A stretch of 64,000 nt of DNA from a virus. A program made the translations under genes and the position numbers. Positions 28,301 to 54,917 of this stretch are shown here, piece by piece. Location: the IMG/VR virus record IMGVR_UViG_3300035698_012408. One strand, written 5' to 3'. The notes below the pieces were generated by a model, which saw only the letters and a program-made list of their open reading frames with translations, ran no database searches and was not told where the DNA came from. The number at the start of each line of letters is the position of its first letter. Position 1 is the first letter of the stretch.

Positions 28301-29828
28301 TATTACCGAGCGGGGAGAACGTGCTCTCCATGTCGGGAATCTCATAATCCACCGTGTTGCGTGGCACCATGCGGACCTTGCCACTCTTCAACACCGGCAC
28401 CAACGCCTTGGGGTCGCGTTTCCCGCCACCTGGAAATGCTATCACGGCATCTGCCAAGTCCTGAGGACTTCGATATACGGTCTCACCAGTCTTAGTATCC
28501 ACCACTGGGGTGTAGACACGTCCGTCGTCACCCTTTCGCGCGGCACTTGCCATCCTCGCATCGACGCCTACCTTCCCGCTCTCTGGCGTGCGTAGAAAAT
28601 CCACAAAGCCAAACTGCGTTGGCTGCACTGCCCGAGCTTCGTCTGGTACTGCGTCCAAACTTGGGATACCACCTTCACCCATCCGCGTTACGCGGGAGTG
28701 CTGGTCGAAAATGTCTGCCGGATTGATCTCTTCCAGGGGGATACCCAGGCCGCTGCTCATGAGTGCGGCTTGAATCACGTCGTTGTAGGCTCCAGTCGGC
28801 ATCCGCTCAAGATCACCACGCCCCGAGGCCTTCCACAACAGCCTCTGCGTGACGCTACGCGCCTTGCCGAGCCGTTCCGCGAACAAGTCCTCCGGTCCCA
28901 TCATGGACTGGTAGGCCATCGAATCACGATCGTCAGGCTCTGCTTCGCCGCGAGACACGGCCAACAGCTTGCGAGTGACCGCCAGCAGCGTATCCGGCCC
29001 GACGTTCTCGAACGGTTCGCCGAGTGTCCGCTTCGTCACCTCGGGGTCCAGCGACATGGCCATGAAGGCCTCGGCAACGCGAGCCTTCTGCTCTATGGAG
29101 CTGCCTTCGCCGTCCTTGAACAGCTTGGAGTGTAGCTTGCGGATGACGGCGGGGTCATCCTTCTGGGCGTTCGTGTAAGTGAGATCATTGCCCCAGGCTT
29201 CCCGCAGCTGCGTGTCCGTCACCCCTTGGGCCCGCAAGAGCGGGAGGAGCGGCATCCTTGCCTGCCCCATTTGAATGCGGAATATCCCGCTCTGTGGGTC
29301 AAGGAATATTCGGTGACTGAAGCCCTTCTTCACGTTGACGTGGCTTTCCAGTTCACCATTGTCTTTCATGCGAGTGAACACACCCGGACGCAGTCGCATC
29401 TGGTGTGCCATCGTGTATTCGTTCCCGTTGACAACAAAAGTCCCGCGATCAGTCATCCACGGGATCTTGGCAACCGTGGCCTTCTTCCGCCCCAGTTCTG
29501 CTCCTTCCGCATCAGACAGCACCCACGTGCCACGCAGCGGCCGCGATAGACTTTTTCGCGATAGAATAGCCTTCTTTTGTTCGGCGATGGAGAAGCTCTC
29601 GGGGCCGTGGTACGCCACGTCCGTCAACGCGAGAGTATGCCGGGGGTTGGACACGGGTTCGATAGCTTGGGCGGCCGCCAACGCGTTGGCAAACAGACGT
29701 TTGCGAGTACCCGGTGTGTCACCGAACTTGCGATACGCGGGCGTAGCTTCCTCTTTGTCAGCCACGGGAGGAGCGAGGCTGGCATCAGGACCAAGTACCG
29801 ACTGAGAAATTAAACTGTCGTTAGCCAT
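25383..29828 (-). CDS. rpoB-rpoC fusion: DNA-directed RNA polymerase beta subunit fused to the N-terminal half of beta'
   Basis: Beta motifs: GTFVVNGNEYTMAHQMRLRPGVF, GRYGDKGIISRIVPDADMP...LLNPLGVISRTN, FMKLHHTAESKGQGRG, GMLEVGALLSHGA. Then, in the same frame, beta' motifs: VPVLPPAFRPV, INRAPTLHRYGMMAARP, NADFDGDAMQYHVP. The start at 29828 (MANDSL) overlaps the upstream stop as ATGGCTAA. Confidence 0.9.
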   Translation of the reverse strand: MANDSLISQSVLGPDASLAPPVADKEEATPAYRKFGDTPGTRKRLFANALAAAQAIEPVSNPRHTLALTDVAYHGPESFSIAEQKKAILSRKSLSRPLRGTWVLSDAEGAELGRKKATVAKIPWMTDRGTFVVNGNEYTMAHQMRLRPGVFTRMKDNGELESHVNVKKGFSHRIFLDPQSGIFRIQMGQARMPLLPLLRAQGVTDTQLREAWGNDLTYTNAQKDDPAVIRKLHSKLFKDGEGSSIEQKARVAEAFMAMSLDPEVTKRTLGEPFENVGPDTLLAVTRKLLAVSRGEAEPDDRDSMAYQSMMGPEDLFAERLGKARSVTQRLLWKASGRGDLERMPTGAYNDVIQAALMSSGLGIPLEEINPADIFDQHSRVTRMGEGGIPSLDAVPDEARAVQPTQFGFVDFLRTPESGKVGVDARMASAARKGDDGRVYTPVVDTKTGETVYRSPQDLADAVIAFPGGGKRDPKALVPVLKSGKVRMVPRNTVDYEIPDMESTFSPLGNMIPLKSMVKGQRAVMAARMLTQALPVVGAEAPLVQSGVPGQPGRSFEDEYSKHMGAVRWDSPGRGRVAAVDRDSITVTKEGGGTEEIPLYDNFPYNRKTFIHNTPTVQVGETVEEGQLLARSNFTDMQGVSALGRNARVAYVPFGGLNFEDANVISESFAKKMSSEHMYQHGYEWDGKDQRGKNAFISVFPAAYDKAMLENFDDNGFIRPGTEVKSGDPLILVARERERNRKSMLRGRSPGYLNQTVTWDHHTPGMVTDVVDDDGGSAVVVKSIAPMEVGDKLSGRYGDKGIISRIVPDADMPSDQDGQPYEVLLNPLGVISRTNPAQIVEAALGKIAAARGEAFKVPDFQDEDDLVEYALAELKKAGIADTETIMDSETGRKIPDVFTGNRWFMKLHHTAESKGQGRGLGAYTADQTPAKGGPEGAKRIGMLEVGALLSHGATEFLRSGNMIRGQASPEYWAQYMSGYNPPTPKVPHMYQKYVSHLKAAGINVVRDGSQTHIMALRNDDIDKLAGNRELQNVGTVDWKTMEPVRGGLFDQALTGGHMTPEGGGNRWSFIRLHEPLPNPVMEEPIRRVLGLTKQKFEDVLSGKERLNGATGPKAVGSALDNMNLDGELARAREEIKSGKRTSRDAAVRRLGYLKDAKRLGMHPRDWLLSKVPVLPPAFRPVSTMGKRKLPLVADPNYLYKEVWDANKNLKEAAGLLNDEDIGDERLALYQAFRAVTGLGDPTHPKNQERKVKGILRHVFGTSPKLGMVQRRLLGSAVDMVGRSVIAPDPDLDMDQVGLPEEQAWSIYKPIVTRRLVRKGWSRREAIRAAEERSPVAREALLKEMQDGVVVINRAPTLHRYGMMAARPKLVKGDVLKVSPLVVSGFNADFDGDAMQYHVPATEAEAHEALEKMLPSRNLLSAADFGVHYMPSQEYVGGLYEASARVDEDKPAAVFATTADAIRAYKQGKIGVGRRVEIVEDDK

Positions 29829-30810
29829 ATTGCAGTTCGTCCGCCTCATCGTCTTTGCTGGTCGGGGCATGCGTCACGGTTGTGTAGATCGGTGCTGGAG
29901 CCTTAGCAGCCCGCTGCCGTTCGCGTAACCGCATCGCCCGGTTCATTATCTCCTGCTTACTCCGGCCTGTCGTGTAGTTGTACGTGGCCAGTCCTGTGCC
30001 GCCGGCAAGTAATGCCATCGCAGCCACTAACGCACCCTTACTGCCTTGCACGTTGTCATGCCCAAACGGCGAATACATCGTGTTGAAAATATCATTAAGA
30101 CCATAAGCGAGCTTTTCACGCATGTCGCCGCCTTCCATAGCGGCAACCCGGTCATAGAGGTCATCGATACCTAATGCGTCTCCCGCGTGCTTCGCCTGCA
30201 TGGCCTGTCGATACTGCGACGCCAACGCCTTCTGGTAGTCGGCTTTCGCGTCTGTTACCTCACCTTCCTCAGTGGACTCTCGCTCGCGATCGAGCAGCCA
30301 GTCAGTGAGCTTCCAGCCGCCGTACAGACCGCCACCAGCCATGCCGATACCTGCCGTAGTTCCCCACCAATCACCCAACGGTGATGCCGTCGAGATGTTG
30401 GGCAGCATTTGCGCGAGAGAGTTCCACCACGGGGGTTTCGCGGCAGGTCCGGCGGAGCGTTTCTCACGCTCTTCATCCCTTCCGTGGATCGTGACGGGCG
30501 GCGGGGCAACATGATGAGATACCGGCGACTGGGTGTCATGTACTAGATCATTAACGCCCACCAACGCACGAGCGCCGCCGCCGAATGCTGCACCTAGACC
30601 AGCCAACCGCATGAGCTGCTTGAAGGCTTCACGTTTTGCATTTTGCTGTGCCACATGCGACGTATAAGACGGCCCAGTCAGATCAACGAAAGCCGTTTTC
30701 TCCTGCAAAGCCGCGGGCTCTTGCGAAGCCGTCTTCGCCTTCGTAGCTTGGGCGTACAGCCCCGAAAGTCCCTTCGGTGACCGCTGCTGTTGCTGTCGTT
30801 GCTTGACCAT
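29821..30810 (-). CDS. glycine-zipper membrane protein
   Basis: ATG at 30810 has an AGGAGGGGG SD. The track start is 30894. Gly-rich hydrophobic segments are LAGLGAAFGGGARALVGV, GIGMAGGGLYGGW and LVAAMALLAGGTGLA. The C-terminus is acidic. Confidence 0.55.
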   Translation of the reverse strand: MVKQRQQQQRSPKGLSGLYAQATKAKTASQEPAALQEKTAFVDLTGPSYTSHVAQQNAKREAFKQLMRLAGLGAAFGGGARALVGVNDLVHDTQSPVSHHVAPPPVTIHGRDEEREKRSAGPAAKPPWWNSLAQMLPNISTASPLGDWWGTTAGIGMAGGGLYGGWKLTDWLLDRERESTEEGEVTDAKADYQKALASQYRQAMQAKHAGDALGIDDLYDRVAAMEGGDMREKLAYGLNDIFNTMYSPFGHDNVQGSKGALVAAMALLAGGTGLATYNYTTGRSKQEIMNRAMRLRERQRAAKAPAPIYTTVTHAPTSKDDEADELQYG

Positions 30811-40073: not shown

Positions 40074-41924
40074 CTATCGAAGCCCTAAGACAGATCCTGC
40101 TACGCCTCGCATGAATCCACCCCAGATGCCAAGGTCTTGAAGTTTCGTCTGGCCGGCTGGCGTAAGCCCGCCCAATGCCCCAAGCACTCCACCAGCTATC
40201 CGCGCGGTGGCGAGATCCAGGCCGGCGTTAGCCAGCCCGGAGATAAAGTGCGTGGGTCGTAATATTGGAGCTCCACCATACATCTGCTGGACTCCAGTAA
40301 CAAGCCCTGACGCCGCAGCCGCAATGTACGGCGGCGTGTTGGGCGTCCCCATGCCGTACGGGTTCGCAGTTGAACTCTGCCGCCCGTTATGCACATCATT
40401 CCAAATCGCTCGATTGAACGAGTCTACCGGTACCTGTTTCAACGACACCCCTGCCGACCCACCATAGCCGGAGTAGGCCACCTTGCAAAATCCTTCAGCT
40501 GCTCGCATGAACAGCTCAGACGGCTGAGGCAACGCTGCCTTCGTCGCCTGCCAATCGCTCCCTTTGTAGAAATTATCCCGAAGCGTCAACTCATTCGGCG
40601 ACATCGGGACTTTCGCGTGTGGCGTCATCATCGTACCCATGAAACCCATCGGCTTCCCAGCCTCTCGGGCCATCCCAGCGTTTGCAAACGCTGGCGGGAC
40701 GCTGGACAACGCACCCATCCCTCCACCTAACATGGCCAACGTCCGACGAAGTCTGTTACGCCGAACGTACTTCTCGGGCAGCAGGTGCTCCAGCAGCGTT
40801 CCGCCGAGGTACCCTCCGCCCGCCCCGAGCAAGCCACCGACTATCGAATTGGTCAATGGCGAAGGCCCGCCTGTGGCGGCCCCAGCCCACTCATACGGCT
40901 TGTTCAAGATGCTCAATGCACCAGCCGCCGATTTGATCAACACCCAGTCATCCTGCCCGTGTGGGCCGTACTCCGACTCGGTTCTGACGCTATCCACGCC
41001 ACTGATGGCCTTCAACGCGTTAGCCCACTTCTGATGGACGTTGTCGCTGTCGCCATCCGACAAGATAGCCCAGAGCTGCTTTGTCTCGGGATTCCACCAC
41101 ACGTCACCATAACCGGGGTCAGATGATGCGGGCAGATACCTGATGACCTTCTTGACCGTCTTCTGGACCGTGGCCGCCTCTTTGTAGCGAGTAGCCACGA
41201 GCGCCGGGACAGCCATCCAGGCCTCCAGTTCTCCCTGCTTTTCGATACGTTGGATGGTCTCGTCTTGCACTTTCGACCATGCCTTCCTGGCGTCTACGCC
41301 GCGATCGTCAATGTAAATATCGGCAATCAGCTTATCGCTGGTGCCATCCGGCTGATCCGGGTTCTCGTTCACATAGTCCCACGGAATGTCGTGTTCGTCA
41401 AGATAGGTCTTCGTGAGTTCGTCATCTCCCCGCACCGTGTTAATGATAACACGCCAGCCGCGACCTTTGAACTCATCCAGAGCTTTTTTAGCCCCTGGAC
41501 GTGGCTTAGGGATGTCTTCGGGATCAAACTTATCATACATCTCTGCAATGGTCCCGTCCAGATCTACTGCCACGGTCGGGACCTTTTCACCGGCTTCTGC
41601 CTGCTTTATTGTATCATCCAGGCCAGCACTTCCATCCCATAGGCCGCGGAAGGCCGCCTGCCCAGCAATCCGCTGCGGAAGTCCTCCATCTGTAGATCGT
41701 AGGCCCGCCAGTGCTTTGCTACTGCTCTGCGTTGTTGCTGTGCGACCCACAACGCTCGACGCCTTTCTGCGCCCCGCGTTGCCTGCCGTTCTCGCTTCTG
41801 CCGTTTTTGCTGGCGTCGCGAGCAGCGTTCCGATTTGCCTTTGGACTTTCCCCGTTTGGTGACCCGTTCCTTTGGCTCGTCGCATCTCATGCGTCGTCTG
41901 TCTCCTATGTGTTGTGGCCATCAT
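40074..41924 (-). CDS. HAD-superfamily phosphatase domain fused to a long glycine-zipper C-terminal region
   Basis: HAD motif I VAVDLDGTIAE, motif II VIINTVRG, motif III-like KLIADIYIDDRG. The C-terminus has IVGGLLGAGGGYLGG and IAGGVLGALGG. ATG at 41924 has a GGGAG SD. Confidence 0.6.
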   Translation of the reverse strand: MMATTHRRQTTHEMRRAKGTGHQTGKVQRQIGTLLATPAKTAEARTAGNAGRRKASSVVGRTATTQSSSKALAGLRSTDGGLPQRIAGQAAFRGLWDGSAGLDDTIKQAEAGEKVPTVAVDLDGTIAEMYDKFDPEDIPKPRPGAKKALDEFKGRGWRVIINTVRGDDELTKTYLDEHDIPWDYVNENPDQPDGTSDKLIADIYIDDRGVDARKAWSKVQDETIQRIEKQGELEAWMAVPALVATRYKEAATVQKTVKKVIRYLPASSDPGYGDVWWNPETKQLWAILSDGDSDNVHQKWANALKAISGVDSVRTESEYGPHGQDDWVLIKSAAGALSILNKPYEWAGAATGGPSPLTNSIVGGLLGAGGGYLGGTLLEHLLPEKYVRRNRLRRTLAMLGGGMGALSSVPPAFANAGMAREAGKPMGFMGTMMTPHAKVPMSPNELTLRDNFYKGSDWQATKAALPQPSELFMRAAEGFCKVAYSGYGGSAGVSLKQVPVDSFNRAIWNDVHNGRQSSTANPYGMGTPNTPPYIAAAASGLVTGVQQMYGGAPILRPTHFISGLANAGLDLATARIAGGVLGALGGLTPAGQTKLQDLGIWGGFMRGVAGSVLGLR

Positions 41925-41943
41925 AAATCTCCCGTCCCTGGAG

Positions 41944-42672
41944 TTATTCGTCGAAATAGCACTCAAGGTCGGTGCCGGTAAACTCTTGCTTCAGTTCCGT
42001 GTAATTCTCAATCTGCGATGATAAGGATCTAATCCCTACCTTCACTGTATTGGTTGTAGGCGCCGGGCACAATGCCGGATCTACATCAAGATGCTCGTAG
42101 ATGCGACGCATATACCGCAGCGGGGCTGCACACAGCGACTCGTACGTCAAAACGAAAGAATCCGTATAAGCTAGGCCCGTGGTGGACTGGAGCTGACGAA
42201 TGGCGTCAATATCCTGACGCAACGCAGCAGAGTCCACAACCAGCCGCTGATTCCGAATACGCTCAGCTTTACGCCGCCACCCCGCCTGATGCCGTCGAAT
42301 CTGCCATTTCCTGTGATGATCACCCAATTGATGAGACACGAACCGCCGCAGCAGGTTCCACCGCTGAAGCACGATAACCTTCGTGTCTTGAGGTAACAGC
42401 TTAAACAGATCATTGTACTCACGTGGGTTAGTCCAATGAGGCTGCACCCCTTGCCAGCCGTGAAACATGTGCGCGACCGCCCCGGAGCCCTGTGTCGCCA
42501 ACGTCCGCTGAATGCGGGCACTCGTACTCATTCGCGGTCGACCCGCTTTCGCTCCAGGATTAAACACCTCGCCATCACACGCCAAGTCGGGATGAGAGTT
42601 GATCAAGCCGCGGAGCATGTGCGTGCCGCACCGTGGAAAGGTCAAGACTAAAAATCCCTTTGGTTTTGCCAT
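41944..42672 (-). CDS. sulfotransferase (NodH/Stf0-like), paralogue 1
   Basis: GFLVLTFPRCGTHMLRGLINSHP (PAPS P-loop), LQRWNLLRRFVSHQL, YESLC...RRIYEHLDVDP, ends TDLECYFDE. Confidence 0.75.
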   Translation of the reverse strand: MAKPKGFLVLTFPRCGTHMLRGLINSHPDLACDGEVFNPGAKAGRPRMSTSARIQRTLATQGSGAVAHMFHGWQGVQPHWTNPREYNDLFKLLPQDTKVIVLQRWNLLRRFVSHQLGDHHRKWQIRRHQAGWRRKAERIRNQRLVVDSAALRQDIDAIRQLQSTTGLAYTDSFVLTYESLCAAPLRYMRRIYEHLDVDPALCPAPTTNTVKVGIRSLSSQIENYTELKQEFTGTDLECYFDE

Positions 42673-42688
42673 CTATTCAGTTCTCCGA

Positions 42689-43417
42689 CTATTCATTGAA
42701 ATAACACGCGATGTCAGTGTCTGCAAAACGCCTTTTCAATGACTCGTAATTGATTATCATGTCACGTAACGACCTACCCATATGCAGCGGTAGCGTCTCG
42801 GCTTCAATATTCTCGCAAGCATCCGGGTCCGCCCCGAGGTGCTCGTAAATGCGACGCATGTGAAACTCGGTGTGTAGACACAGCTGCTCATACGACACCC
42901 TGTAAGTATTTAGAAACTGGCAACCCCGCGTGGCTAGTATCACCCGAGCGGTGTGTATATCGCCTCGCAACCGCGCGGGGTCTAGCATCACACGTGCATC
43001 TCTTGCTTGCGTTACTAGAACCTGTGCATCACGCTTACTTCGCGTGACGTTCCATACGCTCTTCCTCGCCAACCGCCCCGACGCATACCGTCGCAATAGA
43101 TTCCACCGCTGAATGCACACGACTTTCGTGTCCAATGGTACTTGCTTGAACAAGTCGGCAAACCTAGTTCGTCGCCCTTTCGGCCAGCCGGTACAAGCAT
43201 GAGCTATCATACCAGTAAGCGGCCCCTGCCAATATTCATTTAGGCGAGCCTGCACGCCCCCTGATTCCTTGAACCTGCTAGGATCAAATACCTCATCATG
43301 ACACGTAATGGCTGGGTGTGCATTGAGCAGCGACCGTAAAAAATGACTGCCACTTCTCGGATACGAGAGTAACAGAAATCCTTGCTTACCTTCAGGGAAC
43401 ACCAAACGATCACTCAT
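42689..43417 (-). CDS. sulfotransferase (NodH/Stf0-like), paralogue 2
   Basis: MSDRLVFPEGKQGFLLLSYPRSGSHFLRSLLNAHP, IQRWNLLRRYASGRL, ends TDIACYFNE. ATG at 43417 overlaps the upstream stop as ATGAGTGA. Confidence 0.75.
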   Translation of the reverse strand: MSDRLVFPEGKQGFLLLSYPRSGSHFLRSLLNAHPAITCHDEVFDPSRFKESGGVQARLNEYWQGPLTGMIAHACTGWPKGRRTRFADLFKQVPLDTKVVCIQRWNLLRRYASGRLARKSVWNVTRSKRDAQVLVTQARDARVMLDPARLRGDIHTARVILATRGCQFLNTYRVSYEQLCLHTEFHMRRIYEHLGADPDACENIEAETLPLHMGRSLRDMIINYESLKRRFADTDIACYFNE

Positions 43418-44159
43418 CAAAATAACACGCAAGGTCAGTGCCCGCAAAATGCTTCTTCACCTTTCCATAATTGGTCACTATCTCCCGGATCGGCCGATCC
43501 GCGTTAAGCACCATCGTCTTGGCCTTCACGTGCTTGCACGCATCCGGGTCAGCCCCGAGGTGCTCGTAAATCCGCCGAATATGTTCTTCAGTATTAGCTC
43601 GCAGCTGCTCGTACGTTACCAGATGAGTATTCACGAATTGCAGCCCGAGCGTGGCCAATATTGCTCTGGTGACATCTACATCCAGTCGCAACTTCACCAC
43701 GTCCACACGGATTGTCTGGGTTCTCGCAGCCTCCGCACGGGCTTCAGCGTTGTCCGAACCAGTCATCACCGTCCACTCGTTACTCGCCTGCGCCAGTAAA
43801 TGCGATACGTGCCGTCGAAACAGGTTCCACCGCTGGATGCACACGATCTTCGTGTCCAGCGGCAGCGTCGGGAATAATCCGGCGAAACCACTCTTTGCCC
43901 GCCACACGCAGTCACGCTCCCCACGCCAACCAATATACGCGTGGGCAATCATGCCCGTGAGCGGCCCTTTCCAATACTGGATCAGTCGCTGCTCTACATG
44001 CCCCGGTTCCGGGTAAAGTTCACGGTTAAATATCTCGCCGTGACACTTGATGTCCGGGTGCTCGTTGAGAAGCGATCGCAGGAAATGACTACCACTTCTC
44101 GGATACGAAAGTAGCAGAAATCCTTGCTTGTCTTTGGGAAATGCTAACCGATTACTCAT
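43410..44159 (-). CDS. sulfotransferase (NodH/Stf0-like), paralogue 3
   Basis: MSNRLAFPKDKQGFLLLSYPRSGSHFLRSLLNEHP, IQRWNLFRRHVSHLL, ends TDLACYFDE. The start overlaps the upstream stop as ATGAGTAA. Confidence 0.75.
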   Translation of the reverse strand: MSNRLAFPKDKQGFLLLSYPRSGSHFLRSLLNEHPDIKCHGEIFNRELYPEPGHVEQRLIQYWKGPLTGMIAHAYIGWRGERDCVWRAKSGFAGLFPTLPLDTKIVCIQRWNLFRRHVSHLLAQASNEWTVMTGSDNAEARAEAARTQTIRVDVVKLRLDVDVTRAILATLGLQFVNTHLVTYEQLRANTEEHIRRIYEHLGADPDACKHVKAKTMVLNADRPIREIVTNYGKVKKHFAGTDLACYFDE

Positions 44160-44901
44160 CGAAATATGGCTCCATGTCTGTACCCATGCACTGGGCTTTC
44201 AGCTCTTCGTAATTTGTTACCTGTTGACTAATCGGCACCCGGGCAAACCGCACTGACGTGGTCGTAGGATTTAACTGCTTACCAGGATCTACGCCAAGGA
44301 ACTTGTAAATATCCCACATGACCCGCTTGGGCGTGCTGCAAAGCTGCTCATAGGTAATGTGTATAGCATTTTGAAACCGTAGCCCGATCGTGGACTGTGC
44401 GGCTCTGGCCATGTCCACGCTGGTACGCAGAGCACCAAGCGGAATATTTACCGTAGTCCTGTCGTACTCATCCCGCCGAAACTTCCCTGGTGCGTTAGTC
44501 CTTGCCTCCCACGCCCTGCACTTCAATGCCATGCGGTCAGACACGTAGCGTCGCAACAGATTCCAGCGATGCAGCACCACGCAAACCTGCTCAGGCCTAA
44601 AGCTAACCAGCGGCTCGGCCTTCAACATATCGGCCACGCCCGTCTCTATCCACGCCGTCTTGTCAAGCGTGTACTGGCACGTCATGTGATGCGTGTAACC
44701 AACGTGCTTCCCAGCACTGTAATGCTCCAAGACGTTCGCCACCGTGTGAGGCTGTTTCACCTTTTTTGTGTAATGCGACAGCACATTGAACAGCTCGCCG
44801 TGACAGTGCAAGTCTGGATGCGAGTTAATGTAATCGCACATCAGATGCGTCCCAGAACGTGGGAGCGACAACAGCACAAATCCTCGTTTAGACCCTGCCA
44901 T
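44152..44901 (-). CDS. sulfotransferase (NodH/Stf0-like), paralogue 4
   Basis: MAGSKRGFVLLSLPRSGTHLMCDYINSHP, LHRWNLLRRYVSDRM, ends TDMEPYFDE. ATG at 44901 forms a TAATG junction. The track start is 44931. Confidence 0.75.
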   Translation of the reverse strand: MAGSKRGFVLLSLPRSGTHLMCDYINSHPDLHCHGELFNVLSHYTKKVKQPHTVANVLEHYSAGKHVGYTHHMTCQYTLDKTAWIETGVADMLKAEPLVSFRPEQVCVVLHRWNLLRRYVSDRMALKCRAWEARTNAPGKFRRDEYDRTTVNIPLGALRTSVDMARAAQSTIGLRFQNAIHITYEQLCSTPKRVMWDIYKFLGVDPGKQLNPTTTSVRFARVPISQQVTNYEELKAQCMGTDMEPYFDE

Positions 44902-45833
44902 TACAAATACTTCTCCAATAACTGCGCCCACTTCTTATGGAACGTCGCCAACCCGAATCGTTCACGTGCGATTTCGACATTTGGCGGTGAGCCTGCCAAT
45001 GCCTTCTTAACAAATCCTGCCAATACGTTCGCGGAAACTACTGCTCCGCGTTTCGGTGGAATCCTTGTCACCATGTCAGCGAACTCTTTGCAGCTGGCAC
45101 GTGCGGAAACCACCACCCGCTTACCCATGCACGCAGCTTCGAGCACACAGTATGGGAATGCTTCATTATGTGACGGCACGCACAACACATCAGTTGCACG
45201 ATAGACGTCGCCCGGCGTATCAGTGTACCCTTGCAACGTCGTCCACCGATTATTCAACCGCCGGGAGCCTGCGACACCCTGACCAGACAGCAGTGCCGGC
45301 TCCTGCAACTTCCGGGCAGCCTTGGCCACCGCAACGGCATTCTTCAGCCCCGAGTTTCTACCAACAAACCCCAACAGGAACTGCTCCCCGTACTTCTCGC
45401 GTAGGTCCTCGCCGACGCGGTCCAACCGCTCACAATCAACACCGTTCGTGATCGTCAACGGCTCTCGGCCGAGAGTCTTCCTCATGTTCCCCGCTACGGG
45501 TGACGAAACAGCGACCAACACGTCGGCGGCCTTCATAGCATCCACCCAGCCAGCGTGCCACTTGTTACGGTGATGCCGCACGCAGATCTGCACGCCGCCA
45601 ACCCGTTTGGTCACGCCGCCACTGGAATCGATGATCACCTTCGCGTCAGTGATAACACCTTGCTGCCACTCCAGCCCTGCCGCTGTAAGCCGCGCAAGTG
45701 CCGCGGGTAGAATCATCGGACCCTGAACACGGACACGCATACCGATAGACTGCAAGTAAGGGGCTAGGCTTAACACCCATGTGAGTCCCCCGCCGCAGTC
45801 CAATTTCTTGAATGCAAATGCTATATCGATCAC
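44901..45833 (-). CDS. GT4-family (GT-B) glycosyltransferase, paralogue 1
   Basis: E-x7-E motif EAFPYCVLEAACMGKRVVVS. Collinear with the next gene. A GTG at 45833 (GTGA overlap, TGGAGAAG SD) aligns with the paralogue's MTDITFAF. Alternative start at 45860. Confidence 0.7.
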   Translation of the reverse strand: MIDIAFAFKKLDCGGGLTWVLSLAPYLQSIGMRVRVQGPMILPAALARLTAAGLEWQQGVITDAKVIIDSSGGVTKRVGGVQICVRHHRNKWHAGWVDAMKAADVLVAVSSPVAGNMRKTLGREPLTITNGVDCERLDRVGEDLREKYGEQFLLGFVGRNSGLKNAVAVAKAARKLQEPALLSGQGVAGSRRLNNRWTTLQGYTDTPGDVYRATDVLCVPSHNEAFPYCVLEAACMGKRVVVSARASCKEFADMVTRIPPKRGAVVSANVLAGFVKKALAGSPPNVEIARERFGLATFHKKWAQLLEKYL

Positions 45834-46768
45834 AGATACTTCTCCAATAACTGCATCCACTTTTTGTAGAATAATGGCAGCCCGAAACGCTCTCGGGCTA
45901 CCGCAACGTCGGGAGGCGGGCCTGCCAATGCCTTCTTCACATGTGCTACTATTGCCTCTGCCGTCGGAGTAGTCCTGGCATGCTGCACTTCGATTCGCGT
46001 AACCATATCAGCGTACTCTTCGCAATGTGCGCGAGCTGATACCACCACACGTTTACCGAGACACAGAGCTTCTACCACCGAGAATGGGAAGGCTTCGTGC
46101 TTGGATGGCACGCACATGACGTCAGCGGCTCGATAGACATCGCCTATCGTGGTCGTGTAACCAATCAACTGCGTGTAGTCGTTCTTCAGTCGACTATCCC
46201 CAGCAATGTTACCGCCCGCAAAGATAGCATGGCGATTGAATAGCTTGGCCGCCTTGGCTATCTGTGCTGCGTTCTTCAACTGAGAGTTACGACCGACGAA
46301 CCCCATCAGAAACTCACGACCGAACTTTTTACGCAGGTCCACACCAACCTTGTCCAGACGGTCAATGTCCACGCCGTTGTTGATGACCACGGGCATTCGC
46401 CCAGTGTATCGACGGGTGTTATGAGCCACCGGGATAGACACGGCGACGATTTCATCCGCTTTCTTCGTAGCCTTCACCCAACCACTCAGCCACGTCCGCC
46501 GGCTATGCCGCACGGCGATGACAGGGCCATCATGCTCCCGTGCTACCTTGCAGCCACTGGAGTCGATCACGATGCGGGTATCCTTGATGACACCGATCTC
46601 GAACGGGATGCCCGCTGCTGTCAACGTGGCTATCGCCGTTGGAAACAGCTTCGGTCCCTGGACACGGACGGTCACGCCCTGTGACTGAAGATAAGAGGCG
46701 AGCGAGATTACCCAGGTAAGCCCACCGCCATTATTTAATCCGCGGAACGCGAACGTGATGTCGGTCAT
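45830..46768 (-). CDS. GT4-family (GT-B) glycosyltransferase, paralogue 2
   Basis: 312 aa. EAFPFSVVEALCLGKRVVVS. Roughly 55-60% identical by eye to paralogue 1. ATGA overlap with the methyltransferase gene. Confidence 0.75.
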   Translation of the reverse strand: MTDITFAFRGLNNGGGLTWVISLASYLQSQGVTVRVQGPKLFPTAIATLTAAGIPFEIGVIKDTRIVIDSSGCKVAREHDGPVIAVRHSRRTWLSGWVKATKKADEIVAVSIPVAHNTRRYTGRMPVVINNGVDIDRLDKVGVDLRKKFGREFLMGFVGRNSQLKNAAQIAKAAKLFNRHAIFAGGNIAGDSRLKNDYTQLIGYTTTIGDVYRAADVMCVPSKHEAFPFSVVEALCLGKRVVVSARAHCEEYADMVTRIEVQHARTTPTAEAIVAHVKKALAGPPPDVAVARERFGLPLFYKKWMQLLEKYL

Positions 46769-47319
46769 GCCTTCTCCAGATAGAAGATCGTTTCCTTCCG
46801 ATACGTATCCTCGTGGTGGATATGCCCTTTGAGCATCTCACGCAGATCCGCTTCGCATAACCGAATGTTTGGAATGATGTGGCCTTCCCAGTTATCGTCC
46901 CTGACGTTCGTGTCCGTCTCGGCCATTCGCAAGAACAACACCAACGTCATCCGTTTCGTGTAGGACTTGAGAGCGTTTTCGAGAATCTTCCGCCAGTTGA
47001 CGTTATGTTCCAACACGTGACGCATGTTGAGGCAGGGCACGCGGGAGGTGTAGACTTCGAGATCCTTCAGGTAATCACAGAATCCCGCAGTGCCATCAAC
47101 GCCGATATATTCCGGCCGATCGGCTGGGGGCACCATGTTGTGCAGCACCTTCTCGAAGTCGCGGCAACCGCAGCCCCAGTCTTCAATCATGCCGTTGCCT
47201 TCCAGCCACGCGACAGATCGCCGATAGGAAGTTTTGCGTCCGTAGTCCCGCCGATGCGCTCCGTCTTTATAACACGGCGACCACTTACCGGCTCCACTTT
47301 CTTCTCTTGACTTCCCCAC
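46765..47319 (-). CDS. class I SAM-dependent methyltransferase
   Basis: 184 aa. Motif I-like MIEDWGCGCRDF, followed by YIGVDG and MRHVLEH. GTG start with an AAGGAGAG SD. Confidence 0.65.
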   Translation of the reverse strand: MGKSREESGAGKWSPCYKDGAHRRDYGRKTSYRRSVAWLEGNGMIEDWGCGCRDFEKVLHNMVPPADRPEYIGVDGTAGFCDYLKDLEVYTSRVPCLNMRHVLEHNVNWRKILENALKSYTKRMTLVLFLRMAETDTNVRDDNWEGHIIPNIRLCEADLREMLKGHIHHEDTYRKETIFYLEKA

Positions 47320-47329
47320 GCTACTCTCC

Positions 47330-48760
47330 TTAAATAATTCGACTTAGTAATTGTGCCACAGGCGATGCCTGCTTTACGAGAAATCCATCCGTGCCAGCCC
47401 CGACACGTGTCCCACCACTCCGCCCATTGTCTCCTGGGACATGAAGCCCATCCTGCCCGGCGGTTCCCGATCTGGAGCTCGCCCCACCACTTGGTCGTGA
47501 TCCTCCCGGAAACTCCGTGGTGCCAGCTCTCTTGGTGGTGGCATTAGGCCCTGCGGCAGGTCCTGCACCTCGTCCATGATCGGCGTGTTCGAGGTCACTC
47601 CGCGAATCCGATCGGCTGCACGTGACAGACCATGTGGCTGTCTTGGTTCGGGCAACGGCTCCAGCATTGCTGGCCGCGTGTGCAACTGCGGCGGTTCGTG
47701 AGACCGTGGCGGCTCCTGCTGGTACAGCGAATGGAACGACTGGAACGCGTGCTCCTGCGGCTCCACCGGCAGATCCCGACTTAGTTGCTCCACCTGCCGC
47801 CCGTCCTCCGTCATTATCCAAGACACTCCGATGAACCTCGGGTCGCTGTACATGTGCTTCCGTTGCGGTCGCGAGACGATCCACAGCGGACCCCCGGGCG
47901 GAGGTGGCGGGGTCCACAGTTGCGGCAGCGACAACACCCGGGACGGCGGCTCCACCAGCTTTGCTAGTGGCGGAGGTAACGGCTTCTCCGGTGGCAGCTT
48001 GATCAGACCCAAATCCCCCGACTTTATAACGCGGATCACGATATGATCGCCAGTCTCGGATCGCATCGAGGACTTGATTTCCTGTCTGAGCCTTCGACGC
48101 ATCCCCCGACTGGCTATCGGCTGCGTAACTGGTTGATTCACTTGCGTTTGTGTCATAGAAACTGCTCCCGCTCTTCCCAAAAACTGGTATGTTTTCGTGA
48201 ATTGGATCGGTACTTAGAAACCGTCCAGGGTTATGAATCAGGCTGCCCTTTTTGACATTGCCAGCCTGAAGGACTCGCTTCTTGCGAATCGCGAAGGTGC
48301 TATGGAACTTGAACTCGCCGTTCTTCGGCAGGCCGCTCAGTCCATAACTTTTACGTAGCTTCTCCAGCTCGGGGCTGTGGATTTCGATCATCCAACACTT
48401 GGAGACGTCATCCCAGCCGTGAGGTGATACTGCCCGCACTGGGCCCAACGTGTAACCGAAGGACTTACCACGTTCTGTTATCTTATCACCTCCACCGATT
48501 TCGTCAATCTCTTCTTTCCGCATTACCGAGACATGAGCCCTATAATTCCCAGAATCTTGCTTGGGTACCTCGGTCCCTGGCTCATTCAACGCTTGGAACG
48601 CACCATGCCCTAAGGCGTTCGGTACGTCCATCAGGAGCCACCCGGAGGCAGATAGGTAGAGTTTGCCCTGGAGCGAGTACGAAAGCTCAGGGGCAGCCGC
48701 AGCCATCTTGCGACCGCCCCGAGCTTCGCAACCTTGGCGGGTTGTATCAGTCATTGACAT
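47330..48760 (-). CDS. 2H-phosphoesterase-like protein (LigT / cyclic-nucleotide phosphodiesterase superfamily); only the N-terminal ~190 aa look genuine
   Basis: Two H-x-[ST]-x motifs about 78 aa apart: RAHVSVMRK and FKFHSTFAIRK. The ORF has no in-frame stop until 47330 and so overlaps the better-supported 47374-48156 frame. The likely start at 48760 lies 5 nt after the upstream stop. Confidence 0.5.
   Translation of the reverse strand: MSMTDTTRQGCEARGGRKMAAAAPELSYSLQGKLYLSASGWLLMDVPNALGHGAFQALNEPGTEVPKQDSGNYRAHVSVMRKEEIDEIGGGDKITERGKSFGYTLGPVRAVSPHGWDDVSKCWMIEIHSPELEKLRKSYGLSGLPKNGEFKFHSTFAIRKKRVLQAGNVKKGSLIHNPGRFLSTDPIHENIPVFGKSGSSFYDTNASESTSYAADSQSGDASKAQTGNQVLDAIRDWRSYRDPRYKVGGFGSDQAATGEAVTSATSKAGGAAVPGVVAAATVDPATSARGSAVDRLATATEAHVQRPEVHRSVLDNDGGRAAGGATKSGSAGGAAGARVPVVPFAVPAGAATVSRTAAVAHAASNAGAVARTKTATWSVTCSRSDSRSDLEHADHGRGAGPAAGPNATTKRAGTTEFPGGSRPSGGASSRSGTAGQDGLHVPGDNGRSGGTRVGAGTDGFLVKQASPVAQLLSRII
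47374..48156 (-). CDS. Pro-rich hypothetical protein (the frame supported by codon-position GC)
   Basis: ATG at 48156 has a GGGAG SD. Hand counts at 47701-47760 and 47941-48000 give GC3 of 85% and 70% in this frame, versus 40% and 50% in the overlapping 511-aa frame. Confidence 0.5.
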   Translation of the reverse strand: MTQTQVNQPVTQPIASRGMRRRLRQEIKSSMRSETGDHIVIRVIKSGDLGLIKLPPEKPLPPPLAKLVEPPSRVLSLPQLWTPPPPPGGPLWIVSRPQRKHMYSDPRFIGVSWIMTEDGRQVEQLSRDLPVEPQEHAFQSFHSLYQQEPPRSHEPPQLHTRPAMLEPLPEPRQPHGLSRAADRIRGVTSNTPIMDEVQDLPQGLMPPPRELAPRSFREDHDQVVGRAPDREPPGRMGFMSQETMGGVVGHVSGLARMDFS

Positions 48761-50162: not shown

Positions 50163-53100
50163 TTACGTTGTCGCTGGTGCGACGTTAGCCGGCGTTGCCG
50201 CCGCCTGTGATGTTCGCCATTTGTACCAAAGATCCAAAAACTGATCCTGCTGCTCCGGCGCCACGATGTCCTCCATCATGCCAGATCGCAATCCGGTGAC
50301 GTCGCCCGCGAAGCCAATAACTGAATTACCCCAGCTGCCAAAGCCAGCAGCTCTGTCAAGTTGTTCCTGCTGATCAGGCCCGACCGCATTAAACACGGCC
50401 TCAAGTGCGTGTTCGCCGCCTTGGCCGCCGCGAAGTGCCATCGCCACCATCGGCTTCACTGCCGCCTTCATTGCGTCGGACATCGGCTCCGGTGGAGACA
50501 CCACGTCACTGCCCGCCTCGTACACCTCCTCGGCTCCTGGCTCGAACTGATCTCGCACGAAACCCTGGACGCCTTCTCCGAACATGCCTTGGCGTGCCAG
50601 CGGATAGGCTGCTCCGGCTAACCCTAGCAGGGCCATAAGCCAACTTCCAATACCGCCGCCGTCCTTGCTGGTCATCGCGGACACCAGACCGAGCAGACCA
50701 ACGCCTGCACCGCCATAGAGCAAGACCTGCTCCCAGGTGTCCATGCTTTCGAGCATCCCGCCCACTTCTTCCTCCGGTACGCCTTCAGCCACCAACGCGG
50801 CCGCTGCGTCGTCTGTGACCACCTGCGGTACCGGCTGATCATTTGCAACAGTCTGCACGATCGCCTGCTTATCGGGATCAGCAAATAGGCCAGTTATCGA
50901 CTCGCCAGCTTGATCCAGGTACTCTTGAGCCCTCTCCGGGAACTCGTTTACGAGGCCCGGTATGCCCATACTCTCAAACAGCCCTTCGATCGGGCGTAGC
51001 GGCAGATTCTGCTCTACCCCGGCTTCAGGCTGCTGTGGTCCTTGAACCGGTGCCCCAGGCTGCTGTGGTCCTTGAACCGGTGCCCCAGGCTGCTGTGGTC
51101 CTTGAACCGGCGCTCCGGGCTGCTGTGGTCCTTGCGCCGGCGCTCCGGGCTGTTGCGGACCTTGAACCGGCGCAGGTGGCGGCGTGGGCTGCGCAGGTGG
51201 CTGCGCAGGCTGCTGGGGTCCAGCCACCGGCGTGGCGGGTGTGTTAGGTGGTGTGGGTGTGTTAGGTGGTGTGGGTGTGGTAAGTGGTGCAGTCACCGGA
51301 GGTACCGACGAAACGGGTGGAGCCGCTACCGGCTCCACTGGTGGTGCTGCTGCGGGTGCGGCCGGCCCGGGCACGTTCGGCGTGGCACCAGGGAAGAACG
51401 TCTCCGTACCCTGCGGCAACGTCGTCGCCATCGGTACGTTGCCAAGCATCTCGGCCGGAGGCAGTGTCGCTGGTGGCGTCGGTACGCCTGCTGCCATCTT
51501 CACCCACGACTGTTGCTTCTCCCGCCCGTAGGCCCGGAGCAGGTCCTGCTGTGCTTGTTGCTGGGCTGCCATATCCGCAGCTTGCTCAATCTGAGCTTCG
51601 CTGATTCCCGGTTGGCCGCCGTACTGCTCTGTCAACATCACCTTATATTGCTTAGCGTATTCAGCCACCCGTTGCTCGCCACCCGTCTGCAACGCTTCAC
51701 GCGGTGTCGTGGCAAGTTGCTCTCGATCAAAATCTACAGCAAAGTCAGCGGGATTAGCAGGCTCTACCACTCCGGTGCGTTCCAGCCATCGCTGCGTACC
51801 GCCGCTCTGCTGCTGGTGATTTTCACGCATCCCCTGAACAGCGCCACCTCCGGCCGTCCACTTCAGTGGGATAGTCAGATCTTTAAGACCCTTGGTAACA
51901 GACGGATTCATTCCGGGAATCCTCTGCGACGCGCCAGACATACCACGAAGTGCCGCCCAGGACGGAAGATCTTCTACGACCCCGGCACCTGCCTCAGTAA
52001 GCATTCGCTGAGCTATATTTGCCCCGGGCTGGTTTCCTATCTCGCGAATGCGATCTGCCCCAAGCTGTTGGTAATCACCAAGATTACCGCCGCCGGGCAT
52101 CGGCACGCCATCGATACCGATCTGTATCCCTTCATACGCCGGTGCGAGTGCTTGATACTTAGCGAGCGTATTGAGTGTCGGTTGGAACCCTTTAATACCC
52201 TTCCCCAAACCCCCGAACGCCAGCGACTGAGCAACCTGTGGAGCTGCCTCGACACCGCGGCCAACCATCCGTTTAAGACCACGCCCGACGGGGCCACTCT
52301 CCAATGCCCCTTCCGACAAATCACGACGCGCGCCCGCCCGCCCGGTTCGCGTATCGCGAGCCAGCTGCCCAAGATACTTCATCCGCTGCAACATGTCTTC
52401 CCGAGATGCCTGCGGAAGACTCTGATCTATAGCCCCTTGCATAAGCCGCGGCGCACTGTACTCCGTTAGCTCGCTCATCTGATTCAGTTGTGTCTGGGCG
52501 TCAGCGTCGCCGGCACCAGCGGCTGCGCGTAGTTCATCCAGTCGGTCGCCATTGCTCAACATCTGTCGCGCATTGTGCGAGTTCCCGCGATTCACATCCT
52601 CCATCGCTAGGGTGCGTGCGAACTCTTCTGGATGGCGATTTGCTTCACGCATCTGACCACCGTAGTCGCCCAAGCTCCCCTGCGCGCTGTTCGGATGCAG
52701 CCCCACCCTTGCCGCGTGCGGATTGATACCTTCTCTCAGTGGTGTCAGAATGGGCGAGATAAGGTCATTCAAACCACCTAACGCTCCGGTGTCTGGATTT
52801 TCACCTGTAGCCGCAGCAGACATTCGACCCCCAAGCGGTCCGAGTGTCCTCAACGCGACCAGTGCCTGAGGTATATTTAGAGCGCCACGACCTACATTAG
52901 ATGCTATATCACGAGCCATATCCCCACCGGTACGTCGATCATTCGCCACCGCGTAGGAATTAGCTGCATACTGTGCTGCCTCATCGCCCAACGGCGCGAG
53001 ATTCAATATATGATTACCACGCTCTCCCCCCGGTGCCGTGGTCTTCTGCCCAAAGAAAAACCCGGCGCCTGGAGCTTGCCCGACCGGGATAGGTGCCAAG

Positions 53101-54809
53101 CCTCTGCGAAAAAGATCCTCCATTACCTTGGGATTACCGTGCAAACCAGTGTTACCCAGCCACCACCGCAGCCCGGAATTCACCGACGTATCAATGTTCT
53201 CCCGGAAGACACGAGACTTGTGATCACTGAGCAGCCCACGAACACGCTCATAAGGATCGTCGCCCGCCCCGACGGGTTTGTCATGCTGCGTCCGCAGCCG
53301 TACATTCCAAGCGTTCGGATTGGAGGTGCCAAAAAACGCCTCACCGCGAGGATCATCCTGAGCGTGGGCATAACCTGCCGGAATCTCTCGTATGTCCTGC
53401 CGTGGCTGTGCAGACCGTCCTTCTCCGTATTCTCCGTACATCTTGCTGGCGTGGTCGTACATGCCCACCTTCTGCCCGAAGTAGTTCGTAGAGAATGCGC
53501 GGAGTCGCCGCGTCACTTCCTCCGTGTCACCCCGGACCATCGGATCTGACATGATAGAGTCTGTCCGCTTCCTGAAATACCGATCAGTCTCACGCAGCTT
53601 CGTGAAGGTTGGCGTGAGTACACCGCCATTCTCAGCGTTCACGGTGTCCGCAAAAACGTCTTCAGTAGCCAGCCTTGCCATCTCCTCAGTAAAGTTGCCA
53701 GGGGCAAACGAATCAAAGGTCGGTGTTGGGTTCGAGCGAGGAGCGTTCCTCCGTGCATCCCGAGCTTTCACGCTGCGTTTCAGATAGTCCAAGCTGTTGG
53801 CATAATCATGCTTCTTGTACCCCGACAGCGCCATATTCAGGCTGTGAGGATTGTCACTGTCATCACGGGACTGATGCTCGACCATAGTCCGCCAAGCCTC
53901 TTGCGCCCCGTCGTTCCCTCTCGCTCGATAGTCGTCATCCCACAGCTTCCGGTTGTTCTGCCAATCCTTCCAAGGGCCTTCACGGTATGCGTCGAGTGCC
54001 GTGTGCTGCTCTGGGGTCATCCGCCCCTCAGGCTCTCTGAAACGTCCCGAGAAGGCCACCGAGGAGTGGTCGAACTCCGGCTTGGCTTGCCGGTTGCTGT
54101 TGTAGCCCAATAGTTGCTGGAGCTGCTCCGGCGGGGCCGGCGGCGTGTAGTAGCCCATCTCGCGGTTCAGCTGCGGCGGTGGCTGGAGCTGGTCAAGCGT
54201 CGCCGGGGAGAACTGCATAGACTCGTCCACATGAGACTGATCACGTAGATTACCCAGTTGCGCGCCTTGTGGCATGCTGCCTGTCTGGTCCAGGTAGGAC
54301 GACTGCTCTGGGGCCTGTGTTGGATTAGGGGCCCGCGGGATGGGTTGGTTCGGCTGCCCGGCCCAATTGGTCGCCGGAGGCTGCGGACCCTGCACCGGGG
54401 GCTGGGCCGGTAGGGAATCAGGGAGATTTGGCTTGTAATCAGGGGTTTGAGCGTCCGAAATAAGCCGATTCGCCGGTCTCACGCCGTCCAGATTGGGATT
54501 ACGCCACGGATGCGTGTCCGGGGTGTACGGCGACTTCCCCGCAGCGATATTGTCCTGCATGTAGGGCGGCGGACCGATCGCACACTTCTCGAACTCTGCC
54601 GCTACTGCGGGATGGAAGTCGATAGCGTGCTGAATGGCAGAAAAGACCTCCCGATCGCTGTTAAGCCCAGCTTCCTTGCAGCGCAGCAGAAAACCGGCTA
54701 CAAATGCGGACTTTTCAGGCGTTACAGCCCGTAAATTGATAGCCGCAGCTGCGGATTGCAGCTCAGCAGTGGTTTGGGTCGGACCAATCAATGAGAAAGC
54801 GCCAGCCAT
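50163..54809 (-). CDS. giant (1548-aa) hypothetical protein with Pro-rich tandem repeats and a C-terminal membrane segment
   Basis: ATG at 54809 has an AAGGAGGG SD. N-terminal motif FVAGFLLRCKEAGL. Repeats are (QGPQQPGAPV)x5 and PTPPNTPTPPNT. TM-like segment VLLYGGAGVGLLGLVSAM...WLMALLGLAGAAYPL. Confidence 0.7.
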   Translation of the reverse strand: MAGAFSLIGPTQTTAELQSAAAAINLRAVTPEKSAFVAGFLLRCKEAGLNSDREVFSAIQHAIDFHPAVAAEFEKCAIGPPPYMQDNIAAGKSPYTPDTHPWRNPNLDGVRPANRLISDAQTPDYKPNLPDSLPAQPPVQGPQPPATNWAGQPNQPIPRAPNPTQAPEQSSYLDQTGSMPQGAQLGNLRDQSHVDESMQFSPATLDQLQPPPQLNREMGYYTPPAPPEQLQQLLGYNSNRQAKPEFDHSSVAFSGRFREPEGRMTPEQHTALDAYREGPWKDWQNNRKLWDDDYRARGNDGAQEAWRTMVEHQSRDDSDNPHSLNMALSGYKKHDYANSLDYLKRSVKARDARRNAPRSNPTPTFDSFAPGNFTEEMARLATEDVFADTVNAENGGVLTPTFTKLRETDRYFRKRTDSIMSDPMVRGDTEEVTRRLRAFSTNYFGQKVGMYDHASKMYGEYGEGRSAQPRQDIREIPAGYAHAQDDPRGEAFFGTSNPNAWNVRLRTQHDKPVGAGDDPYERVRGLLSDHKSRVFRENIDTSVNSGLRWWLGNTGLHGNPKVMEDLFRRGLAPIPVGQAPGAGFFFGQKTTAPGGERGNHILNLAPLGDEAAQYAANSYAVANDRRTGGDMARDIASNVGRGALNIPQALVALRTLGPLGGRMSAAATGENPDTGALGGLNDLISPILTPLREGINPHAARVGLHPNSAQGSLGDYGGQMREANRHPEEFARTLAMEDVNRGNSHNARQMLSNGDRLDELRAAAGAGDADAQTQLNQMSELTEYSAPRLMQGAIDQSLPQASREDMLQRMKYLGQLARDTRTGRAGARRDLSEGALESGPVGRGLKRMVGRGVEAAPQVAQSLAFGGLGKGIKGFQPTLNTLAKYQALAPAYEGIQIGIDGVPMPGGGNLGDYQQLGADRIREIGNQPGANIAQRMLTEAGAGVVEDLPSWAALRGMSGASQRIPGMNPSVTKGLKDLTIPLKWTAGGGAVQGMRENHQQQSGGTQRWLERTGVVEPANPADFAVDFDREQLATTPREALQTGGEQRVAEYAKQYKVMLTEQYGGQPGISEAQIEQAADMAAQQQAQQDLLRAYGREKQQSWVKMAAGVPTPPATLPPAEMLGNVPMATTLPQGTETFFPGATPNVPGPAAPAAAPPVEPVAAPPVSSVPPVTAPLTTPTPPNTPTPPNTPATPVAGPQQPAQPPAQPTPPPAPVQGPQQPGAPAQGPQQPGAPVQGPQQPGAPVQGPQQPGAPVQGPQQPEAGVEQNLPLRPIEGLFESMGIPGLVNEFPERAQEYLDQAGESITGLFADPDKQAIVQTVANDQPVPQVVTDDAAAALVAEGVPEEEVGGMLESMDTWEQVLLYGGAGVGLLGLVSAMTSKDGGGIGSWLMALLGLAGAAYPLARQGMFGEGVQGFVRDQFEPGAEEVYEAGSDVVSPPEPMSDAMKAAVKPMVAMALRGGQGGEHALEAVFNAVGPDQQEQLDRAAGFGSWGNSVIGFAGDVTGLRSGMMEDIVAPEQQDQFLDLWYKWRTSQAAATPANVAPATT
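51031..51180 (-). repeat. 30-bp in-frame tandem repeat, 5 copies
   Basis: TGCTGTGGTCCTTGAACCGGTGCCCCAGGC recurs at 51031, 51061, 51091, 51121 and 51151 with minor variation. It encodes QGPQQPGAPV. Confidence 0.9.
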
Positions 54810-54917
54810 CGCACACGCCCTCCTTGGGTGCAAAAGAGGTTGCTGCTGGGAACCAGCTTGGTCCCACGGTGTTAATCATACCCCAACTCTCACCGCAATG
54901 CGAGAGGAGTCAAGAAT

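Follow-up and report, generated by a model that had tools for sequence, protein, structure and literature searches.

We analysed a gene on the minus strand of a 64,000-nucleotide stretch of viral DNA (IMG/VR record IMGVR_UViG_3300035698_012408; hereafter 'the window'), at positions 47330 to 48760. This locus encodes an intact, single-domain phosphoesterase of the 2H-SAK type, a new member of a known family. The enzyme itself is ordinary. The unusual part is that its open reading frame (ORF) stays open far beyond the catalytic domain and contains, in the +1 frame, the whole of a second ORF that we call gene B, an overlap that is not seen in the relatives examined. The single most likely reading, which we hold with about even confidence, is that of a real embedded-gene overlap in which the open frame of the 2H gene is kept by selection.

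Three-frame translation showed that the frame of the 2H gene (frame A) extends from an ATG at 48760 to a TAA at 47332-47330 and codes for 476 aa. An alternative ATG at 48754, picked by the gene callers on other assemblies, gives a product of 474 aa (47330-48754, minus strand). The protein matches the Pfam family PF22547 (2H-SAK) with 34.5 bits against a gathering cut-off of 27 (E = 2.7e-8; residues 52-162, profile positions 13-122 of 124), and this is its sole Pfam family at E <= 1. Using residues 1-228 as the query, 64 proteins were collected at 44-63% sequence identity, with E values from 1e-25 to 1e-60, and all of them carry PF22547. Since the Pfam score is above its threshold and the 64 homologues are found at such E values, the 2H signal is far beyond chance.

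The catalytic domain, as delimited by Pfam, the homologues and an AlphaFold2 model, covers residues ~25-170 counted from the ATG at 48760 (48251-48688, minus strand). It harbours two H-x-[ST]-x motifs, AHVSVM (A-H76-V-S78-V-M, 48521-48538) and FHSTFA (F-H153-S-T155-F-A, 48290-48307), with a spacing of 77 residues from His76 to His153. In the alignment of 65 sequences, A75, H76 and V79 are invariant and 90% or more of the sequences share H153, which is also invariant in 49 relatives from IMG/VR. All the invariant or near-invariant residues of the family are present in the window protein, including VPN46-48, A75, H76, S78, V79, R136, Y139, H153, T155 and R159. The AlphaFold2 model, built with the 65-sequence alignment, has a predicted local distance difference test score (pLDDT) of 89, with values above 95 over core residues 21-160. 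The beta-strands 76-80 and 152-160 of this model begin at the two motifs.

Foldseek comparisons with viral models (BFVD) returned 2H proteins at a probability of about 1.0, with template modelling scores (TM) of 0.35-0.58 overall. The named matches were a 'Swiss Army Knife' (SAK) 2H domain, a cyclic phosphodiesterase and a member of the 2'-5' RNA ligase superfamily (TM 0.35-0.45), with Acb1 also among the matches, and the highest TM (0.50-0.58) were those of unnamed giant-virus proteins. The informative structural matches in the PDB, namely the ns2 phosphodiesterase (PDE) of mouse hepatitis virus (MHV), PDE-9 of phage BCSR5 and Acb1, are weak (E >= 0.06, TM 0.29-0.47); over PDB and BFVD together, the matches to Acb1 have TM of 0.29-0.50 and E values of 0.04-0.7. 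A search of all PDB sequences with the family profile, Acb1 entries included, yielded nothing at E <= 10, and no Pfam or NCBIfam match to the LigT/2'-5' RNA ligase, CPDase or AKAP7-type families was obtained at E <= 1. Judged by its sequence, the 2H protein is a member of neither the Acb1 nor the LigT family. A first-pass annotation of this DNA had proposed the 2H superfamily on the strength of the two motifs, and both the assignment and the motifs are borne out here. It had also set the protein beside Acb1, LigT and AKAP7-type folds: the 2H fold was recovered, with Acb1 as a weak structural match only and no profile match to the LigT or AKAP7-type families.

The DNA of the locus is correct as assembled. 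Five fetched contigs (L007, L008, L090, L091 and L092), from JGI, ENA and Logan samples and produced by different assemblers, show neither indels nor substitutions relative to the window between 47330 and 48760. Three genotypes are represented among them, distinguished by position 48869, position 44261 and a 30-nt repeat indel within the gene for a 1556-aa protein. As a ribosome starting on the 2H gene meets no stop before 47332, the predicted product consists of the catalytic domain and a low-complexity tail of ~300 aa. This C-terminal tail (47333-48250, minus strand; ~305 aa) is rich in Ala, Gly, Ser, Thr and Arg, with 19% Ala, 14% Gly, 11% Ser and 8% Arg, and the last 260 codons before its final 14 overlap gene B out of frame. 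Both the lack of an in-frame stop and the Ala/Gly/Arg-rich character of the tail had been described in the first-pass annotation.

Gene B (47374-48156, minus strand; stop TAA at 47376-47374) codes for a Pro-rich ORFan of 260 aa and lies wholly within the 2H ORF. Its genome-typical codon usage and its own ribosome-binding site indicate that it is a real gene, most likely initiated separately at 48156. The ribosome-binding site, GGGAG at 48165-48169, is located 8 nt before the ATG. In our survey of start sites, GGAG was found at -16 to -5 in 24 of 35 confident starts, compared with 4.8% of the other ATGs on that strand, which gives a likelihood ratio of about 14. The GC contents of gene B at the first, second and third codon positions (GC1/2/3) are 0.68/0.48/0.70, compared with 0.64/0.46/0.645 for the genome. 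Over its 260 codons the codon log-odds score is +40, where true frames have 61 +/- 13 and the two off-frames -91 +/- 24 and -103 +/- 26; the highest score of any off-frame window is -27. The synonymous-usage score is 0.18 bits per codon, compared with 0.11 +/- 0.07 in true frames. Hand counts in the first-pass annotation had favoured this frame over 47374-48156. It is indeed the preferred one downstream of about 48100, and the better coding signal past 48156 is confirmed; the GC3 difference was right in direction (0.70 for gene B versus 0.47 for the tail), while the exact hand-counted values were rougher than those measured here.

A word-indexed search for homologues of gene B returned only gene B itself, and in a full phmmer scan of 1.8 billion representatives it matched two proteins only, one repetitive and of low complexity, the other with PEGA repeats. 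In the latter comparison, residues 82-118 of gene B (47803-47913, minus strand) show a weak, repeated likeness to a metagenomic protein of 797 aa, namely to the first half of its PEGA repeats, with the pattern PPPxGxLxIxSRPxxxxxYxDxxFxG (pairwise E = 1e-4; no Pfam PEGA match for gene B). AlphaFold2 run on gene B without an alignment gave a pLDDT of 41, which is uninformative.

The arrangement recalls the Rz/Rz1 pair of phage lambda, in which a complete gene with its own start signals is located inside a longer gene of the same strand, in the +1 frame, and the embedded product is proline-rich. Gene B and the 2H gene have the same nested +1 geometry, with separate start signals and a proline-rich inner product. 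Nevertheless, the overlap of 780 nt is far longer than Rz1, and the outer gene codes here for an enzyme devoid of transmembrane segments. We rejected a spanin reading of the pair: gene B codes for no cysteine, which excludes a lipobox, the N-terminus of the 2H protein is polar, and gene B has no signal peptide either.

In an embedded overlap of this geometry, one transcript would yield both products, a 2H enzyme with a long, low-complexity and probably disordered tail, and an independently initiated Pro-rich protein from gene B, with selection holding the frame of the tail open. The more specific proposal that ~780 nt of same-strand dual coding are maintained by selection, and that one of the two frames was born de novo by overprinting, is made tentatively, with less confidence than the overlap as such. 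If the overlap is under selection, this jumbo phage would carry an embedded gene pair of unusual length, which would be a candidate for gene birth by overprinting. In the event of overprinting, the newcomer would be either the disordered tail or the Pro-rich protein, a coding sequence of recent origin open to study in a natural population.

Several observations argue that the frame of the tail is held open. The tail has no stop where about 5 are expected. At the stop-prone junctions of gene B, T-ending codons are absent (0/47), compared with 28/212 elsewhere in gene B (Fisher p = 0.0026), and no such avoidance is found genome-wide (18.8% versus 20.6%). When the codons of gene B were permuted synonymously, frame A stayed open in 0.24% of the trials. 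As a control, 707 windows of 260 codons each were compared: all had at least 4 stops in the +2 frame, with a mean of 11.2. Over the same stretch, the third frame (frame C) has an ordinary off-frame score of -154 and many stops; thus, the region is not generally stop-poor. The codon score of the tail, +1.9, lies 4 standard deviations above the off-frame expectation, mostly through its absence of stops.

A number of findings weigh against a selected overlap. The arrangement occurs in none of the relatives examined. The closest relatives are ~63-64% identical and either stop 12-29 aa past the domain or run into recognisable domains. Searches for closer ones gave no match by phage BLAST and, in a metagenome scan, a single contig of 1.2 kb, which is 64% identical and has a normal stop. 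There is no GGAG ribosome-binding site at the start of the 2H gene, and gene B has neither a homologue nor a confident fold. The GC1/2/3 values of the tail are 0.69/0.67/0.47, with a GC3 below that of all 43 window genes, and its synonymous-usage score of -0.07 is off-frame-like; genuine tails of relatives keep the GC3 of the domain and have broken alternative frames. The 2H part of the gene does not share this deviation: its GC3 of 0.61 is within one standard deviation of that of the 43 window genes (0.644 +/- 0.056). The separate acquisition at which the first-pass annotation had hinted, from a lower GC3 than in the neighbours, is therefore not supported.

A similar open frame is found elsewhere in the window. 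The gene of a 981-aa protein (867-3812) contains an open +1 frame of 280 codons, with a similar permutation probability of 0.002, which otherwise scores as a passenger. Such open runs thus arise in this genome, and the look-elsewhere effect weakens the p = 0.003 obtained for the tail. This gene is the only other place in the window with an alternative frame open for 260 codons. Lastly, the final residues of the tail, SPVAQLLSRII, resemble the C-terminal motif of the family (HPVDQLLG and similar) with an empirical p = 0.047 over 1245 window ORF ends. This likeness is weak, and we do not rely on it as a reason for frame A to be kept open.

The 981-aa ORF (minus strand) has a clear coding signal and no family match. 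Besides its nested same-strand ORFs of 280, 180 and 127 aa, it faces one of 566 aa on the opposite strand.

The most serious rival to a selected overlap, possible and clearly less probable, is an accidental read-through. The 2H gene would have lost its stop, or its C-terminal module would have been replaced, and the tail would be translated, functionless and tolerated. The off-frame composition and codon usage of the tail are as expected for such an accident, as are its lack of homologues and of any trace of the extension module found in relatives. In our searches the tail retrieved only the window's own protein. We probed the region in all frames by phmmer with six extensions of relatives, which gave nothing, and with a jackhmmer-built extension profile that matches more than 50 relatives, which gave nothing at E <= 100; neither the tail nor gene B is therefore retained as the extension module of the family. 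The passenger-like open frame of the 981-aa gene also points to an accident, and an event of 0.2-0.3% probability is not extraordinary given the many genes inspected. What speaks against an accident is that a run to the first stop would be expected to last 20-50 codons and not 290, that it is specifically the stop-prone junctions that have been cleared, and that all three genotypes, from at least five samples, share the arrangement as a fixed trait. Should the overlap nevertheless be an accident, it would mean that a phage population can tolerate an enzyme with a junk tail of 290 residues and bring it to fixation.

It is improbable that the long 2H ORF is the only gene and that frame B is a spurious product of the Ala/Gly-rich composition of the tail. 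The 474-aa ORF was chosen by the gene callers on the 215-kb contig and on two others, many relatives carry extensions of 200-800 aa after the 2H domain, frame B is open in 14% of the permutations given the tail's own codons, and gene B is an ORFan without a predicted fold. Nevertheless, the GC1/2/3 pattern and codon usage of the genome are found in frame B and not in the tail, and the ATG of gene B is preceded by a canonical ribosome-binding site at a typical spacing. Furthermore, when the frame-A protein was kept and its codons were redrawn from genome usage, the frame-B score was -24 +/- 10.5. The observed +40 is thus 6 standard deviations too high for a by-product of the tail (z = 6.1).

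Slightly less probable still is recoding, whereby some ribosomes would leave the 2H frame, so that a short form would accompany or replace the long one. In a first route, they would slip by -1 at C AAA AAG (48248-48254, minus strand), the one heptamer close to slippery that the 2H frame contains near the end of the domain, and reach the frame-C TAA at 48231-48233, giving an enzyme of ~176 aa. In a second, they would shift later and reach the TGA at the start of gene B. In other systems, AAAAAG is prone to shifting. The majority of the stand-alone relatives end 12-29 aa past the second motif, and the -1 product, ending in NVKKGQPDS, would be of such a length. However, C AAA AAG is not canonical because its first base is C, and no stimulatory RNA structure was detected downstream of it (minimum free energy of -28.5 kcal/mol, compared with -23.5 +/- 3.4 for shuffled sequences; z = -1.46). 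No terminator or promoter signal rose above the shuffles either. The BLASTP alignment with the homologue P0014 stays in frame A through SLIHNPG, up to residue 179 (coordinate 48224), past the A-run and the frame-C TAA, which indicates that frame A is coding beyond the catalytic domain.

The later route is that of the first-pass annotation, which had suggested a programmed frameshift yielding a ~200-aa 2H protein coupled to the next gene by the ATGA at 48153-48156, where the ATG of gene B overlaps a third-frame TGA (48155-48153). The ATGA is present, and an A after an ATG is a 1-in-4 coincidence. The TGA is not the first third-frame stop: because frame C also has the TAA at 48233-48231, it can be reached only by a shift within 48230-48156, and a codon-by-codon reading of that interval revealed no X XXY YYZ heptamer. 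We thus retained neither a -1 nor a +1 frameshift, nor the proposed coupling. The same annotation had raised a 1-nt indel of assembly or sequencing origin, in which case the true genome would have a stop soon after the domain; its one argument is the prior that unexpected frames often reflect homopolymer errors, here with an A5 run at 48253-48249, and it is effectively refuted by the base-for-base agreement of five contigs and three genotypes.

The overlap has a practical consequence, the inconsistent annotation of both genes. The identical 474-aa product is called on three to four other contigs of up to 215 kb. On two contigs, the same DNA is called as the embedded ORF of 260 aa, which leaves 600 bp over the 2H domain uncalled. 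The two ORFs are never both called on one contig (L007, L008, L090-L092), and protein databases therefore miss one product each time. In keeping with this, the window's own 2H protein was absent from the results of our first homologue search.

Regarding function, 2H domains of phage SAK or polyvalent proteins are reportedly also the subject of work by Burroughs and Aravind from 2016. Iyer et al. (2017; PMC5512222) described such domains, noted that RNA ligases are never found linked to 2H domains of this type, and proposed for them a role as RNases or in the degradation of 2',5'-oligoadenylate (2-5A) and other defence nucleotides. The window protein resembles the 2H-SAK polyvalent proteins in its profile score, both HxS/T motifs, the invariant residues and its occurrence in jumbo phages. 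As with the domains of PMC5512222, no link to RNA ligases emerged from the genes inspected here: no RNA ligase gene was found beside the 2H gene in the window or in the four related loci for which we examined the gene calls. In contrast with polyvalent proteins, which combine at least two disparate domains, the window protein has a single one, and its ~300-aa extension is devoid of domains and overlaps another gene. We detected no second domain, the tail having no match in Pfam, PHROG or among homologues.

With Acb1, PDE-9 of Burkholderia phage BCSR5 (PDB 9Q2Y/9Q2G) and MHV ns2, the window protein shares the superfamily fold and the catalytic dyad, without any relationship at the sequence level (TM 0.29-0.50, E >= 0.04). 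By analogy, the window enzyme may act in the same mode and hydrolyse a nucleotide immune messenger. Doherty et al. (bioRxiv 10.1101/2025.08.21.671373) reported that immune messengers are cleaved by a diversity of viral 2H enzymes, that the selectivity depends on the group, and that two structural groups cleaved none of 18 messengers. A role in degrading immune signals, as published proposals hold for phage 2H domains of exactly this type (PMC5512222; bioRxiv 10.1101/2025.08.21.671373), is thus plausible for the window enzyme. LigT and CPDase belong to the same 2H superfamily, and the fusions of relatives to kinase, HAD phosphatase and LigD 3'-phosphoesterase domains recall sets of RNA end-healing enzymes.

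With its two His-x-Ser/Thr motifs, the enzyme would cleave small oligonucleotides or RNA ends, at a 2',3'-cyclic or a 2'-5'/3'-5' phosphodiester. Based on the family context, this activity would most likely serve counter-defence, either by clearing a nucleotide immune signal or by processing RNA ends damaged by a nuclease. The enzyme is a further member of a branch of phage 2H phosphodiesterases that is large and experimentally unexplored. This branch is a sensible target for substrate screens with immune messengers and RNA>p ends.

The 2H-SAK relatives form a jumbo-phage family. In IMG/VR, we identified 130 loci related to the 2H domain, many of them on contigs of 190-235 kb. The relatives found as proteins are mostly of 165-230 aa and end 12-29 residues past the second motif, whereas in the IMG/VR loci, long multi-domain proteins that begin with the 2H domain are the more common form. 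Among 49 non-redundant IMG/VR ORFs, DUF5661 is present in 27 and NUDIX in 7; the other fusion partners are SET, HAD phosphatase, GNAT, InPase, LigD 3'-phosphoesterase and P-loop kinase domains. A conserved segment of ~130 aa, not reported as a domain by Pfam, follows 2H-SAK in more than 50 relatives, often after DUF5661. Its consensus is ...VYLNQARNLL...YDPNKPVFQNVQNHLQEVKQRGD...DPQYRYQ...HPVDxLL, and examples are found in loci L025, L027, L040, L042, L068 and others, and in proteins P0001, P0013 and P0014.

The genome to which the window belongs is that of a jumbo phage of about 215 kb. The identical 474-aa protein is encoded on a contig of 215,361 bp, and all the long ORFs of the window are on one strand. 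Split genes for proteins resembling the beta and beta' subunits of multisubunit RNA polymerases, typical of jumbo phages, are located at 22241-24142 and 25383-29870 (minus strand).

Immediately after the 2H gene, a gene for a 184-aa protein with a GTG start (46765-47319, minus strand) begins after a gap of 10 nt, with an AAGGAG ribosome-binding site directly following the TAA of the 2H ORF. It has no significant family match in Pfam or NCBIfam; its DWGCGCRDF stretch recalls motif I of S-adenosylmethionine-dependent methyltransferases. On the other side, the 1556-aa ORF with the variable repeat (50163-54833, minus strand) contains Pro/Gln-rich tandem repeats (PVQGPQQPGA...) and has no family match. 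Its length varies among assemblies by the 30-nt indel, and products of 1538 and 1548 aa have been called.

Four tandem sulfotransferase paralogues (41944-44931) followed by two GT4 glycosyltransferases (44901-46768) are encoded on the minus strand. Beside the sulfotransferase run, a gene at 40074-41966 (minus strand) codes for a 630-aa protein with a phosphoheptose-isomerase-like part. The region from 40074 to 46768 looks like a glycan-sulfation cluster, an unusual cargo for a phage.

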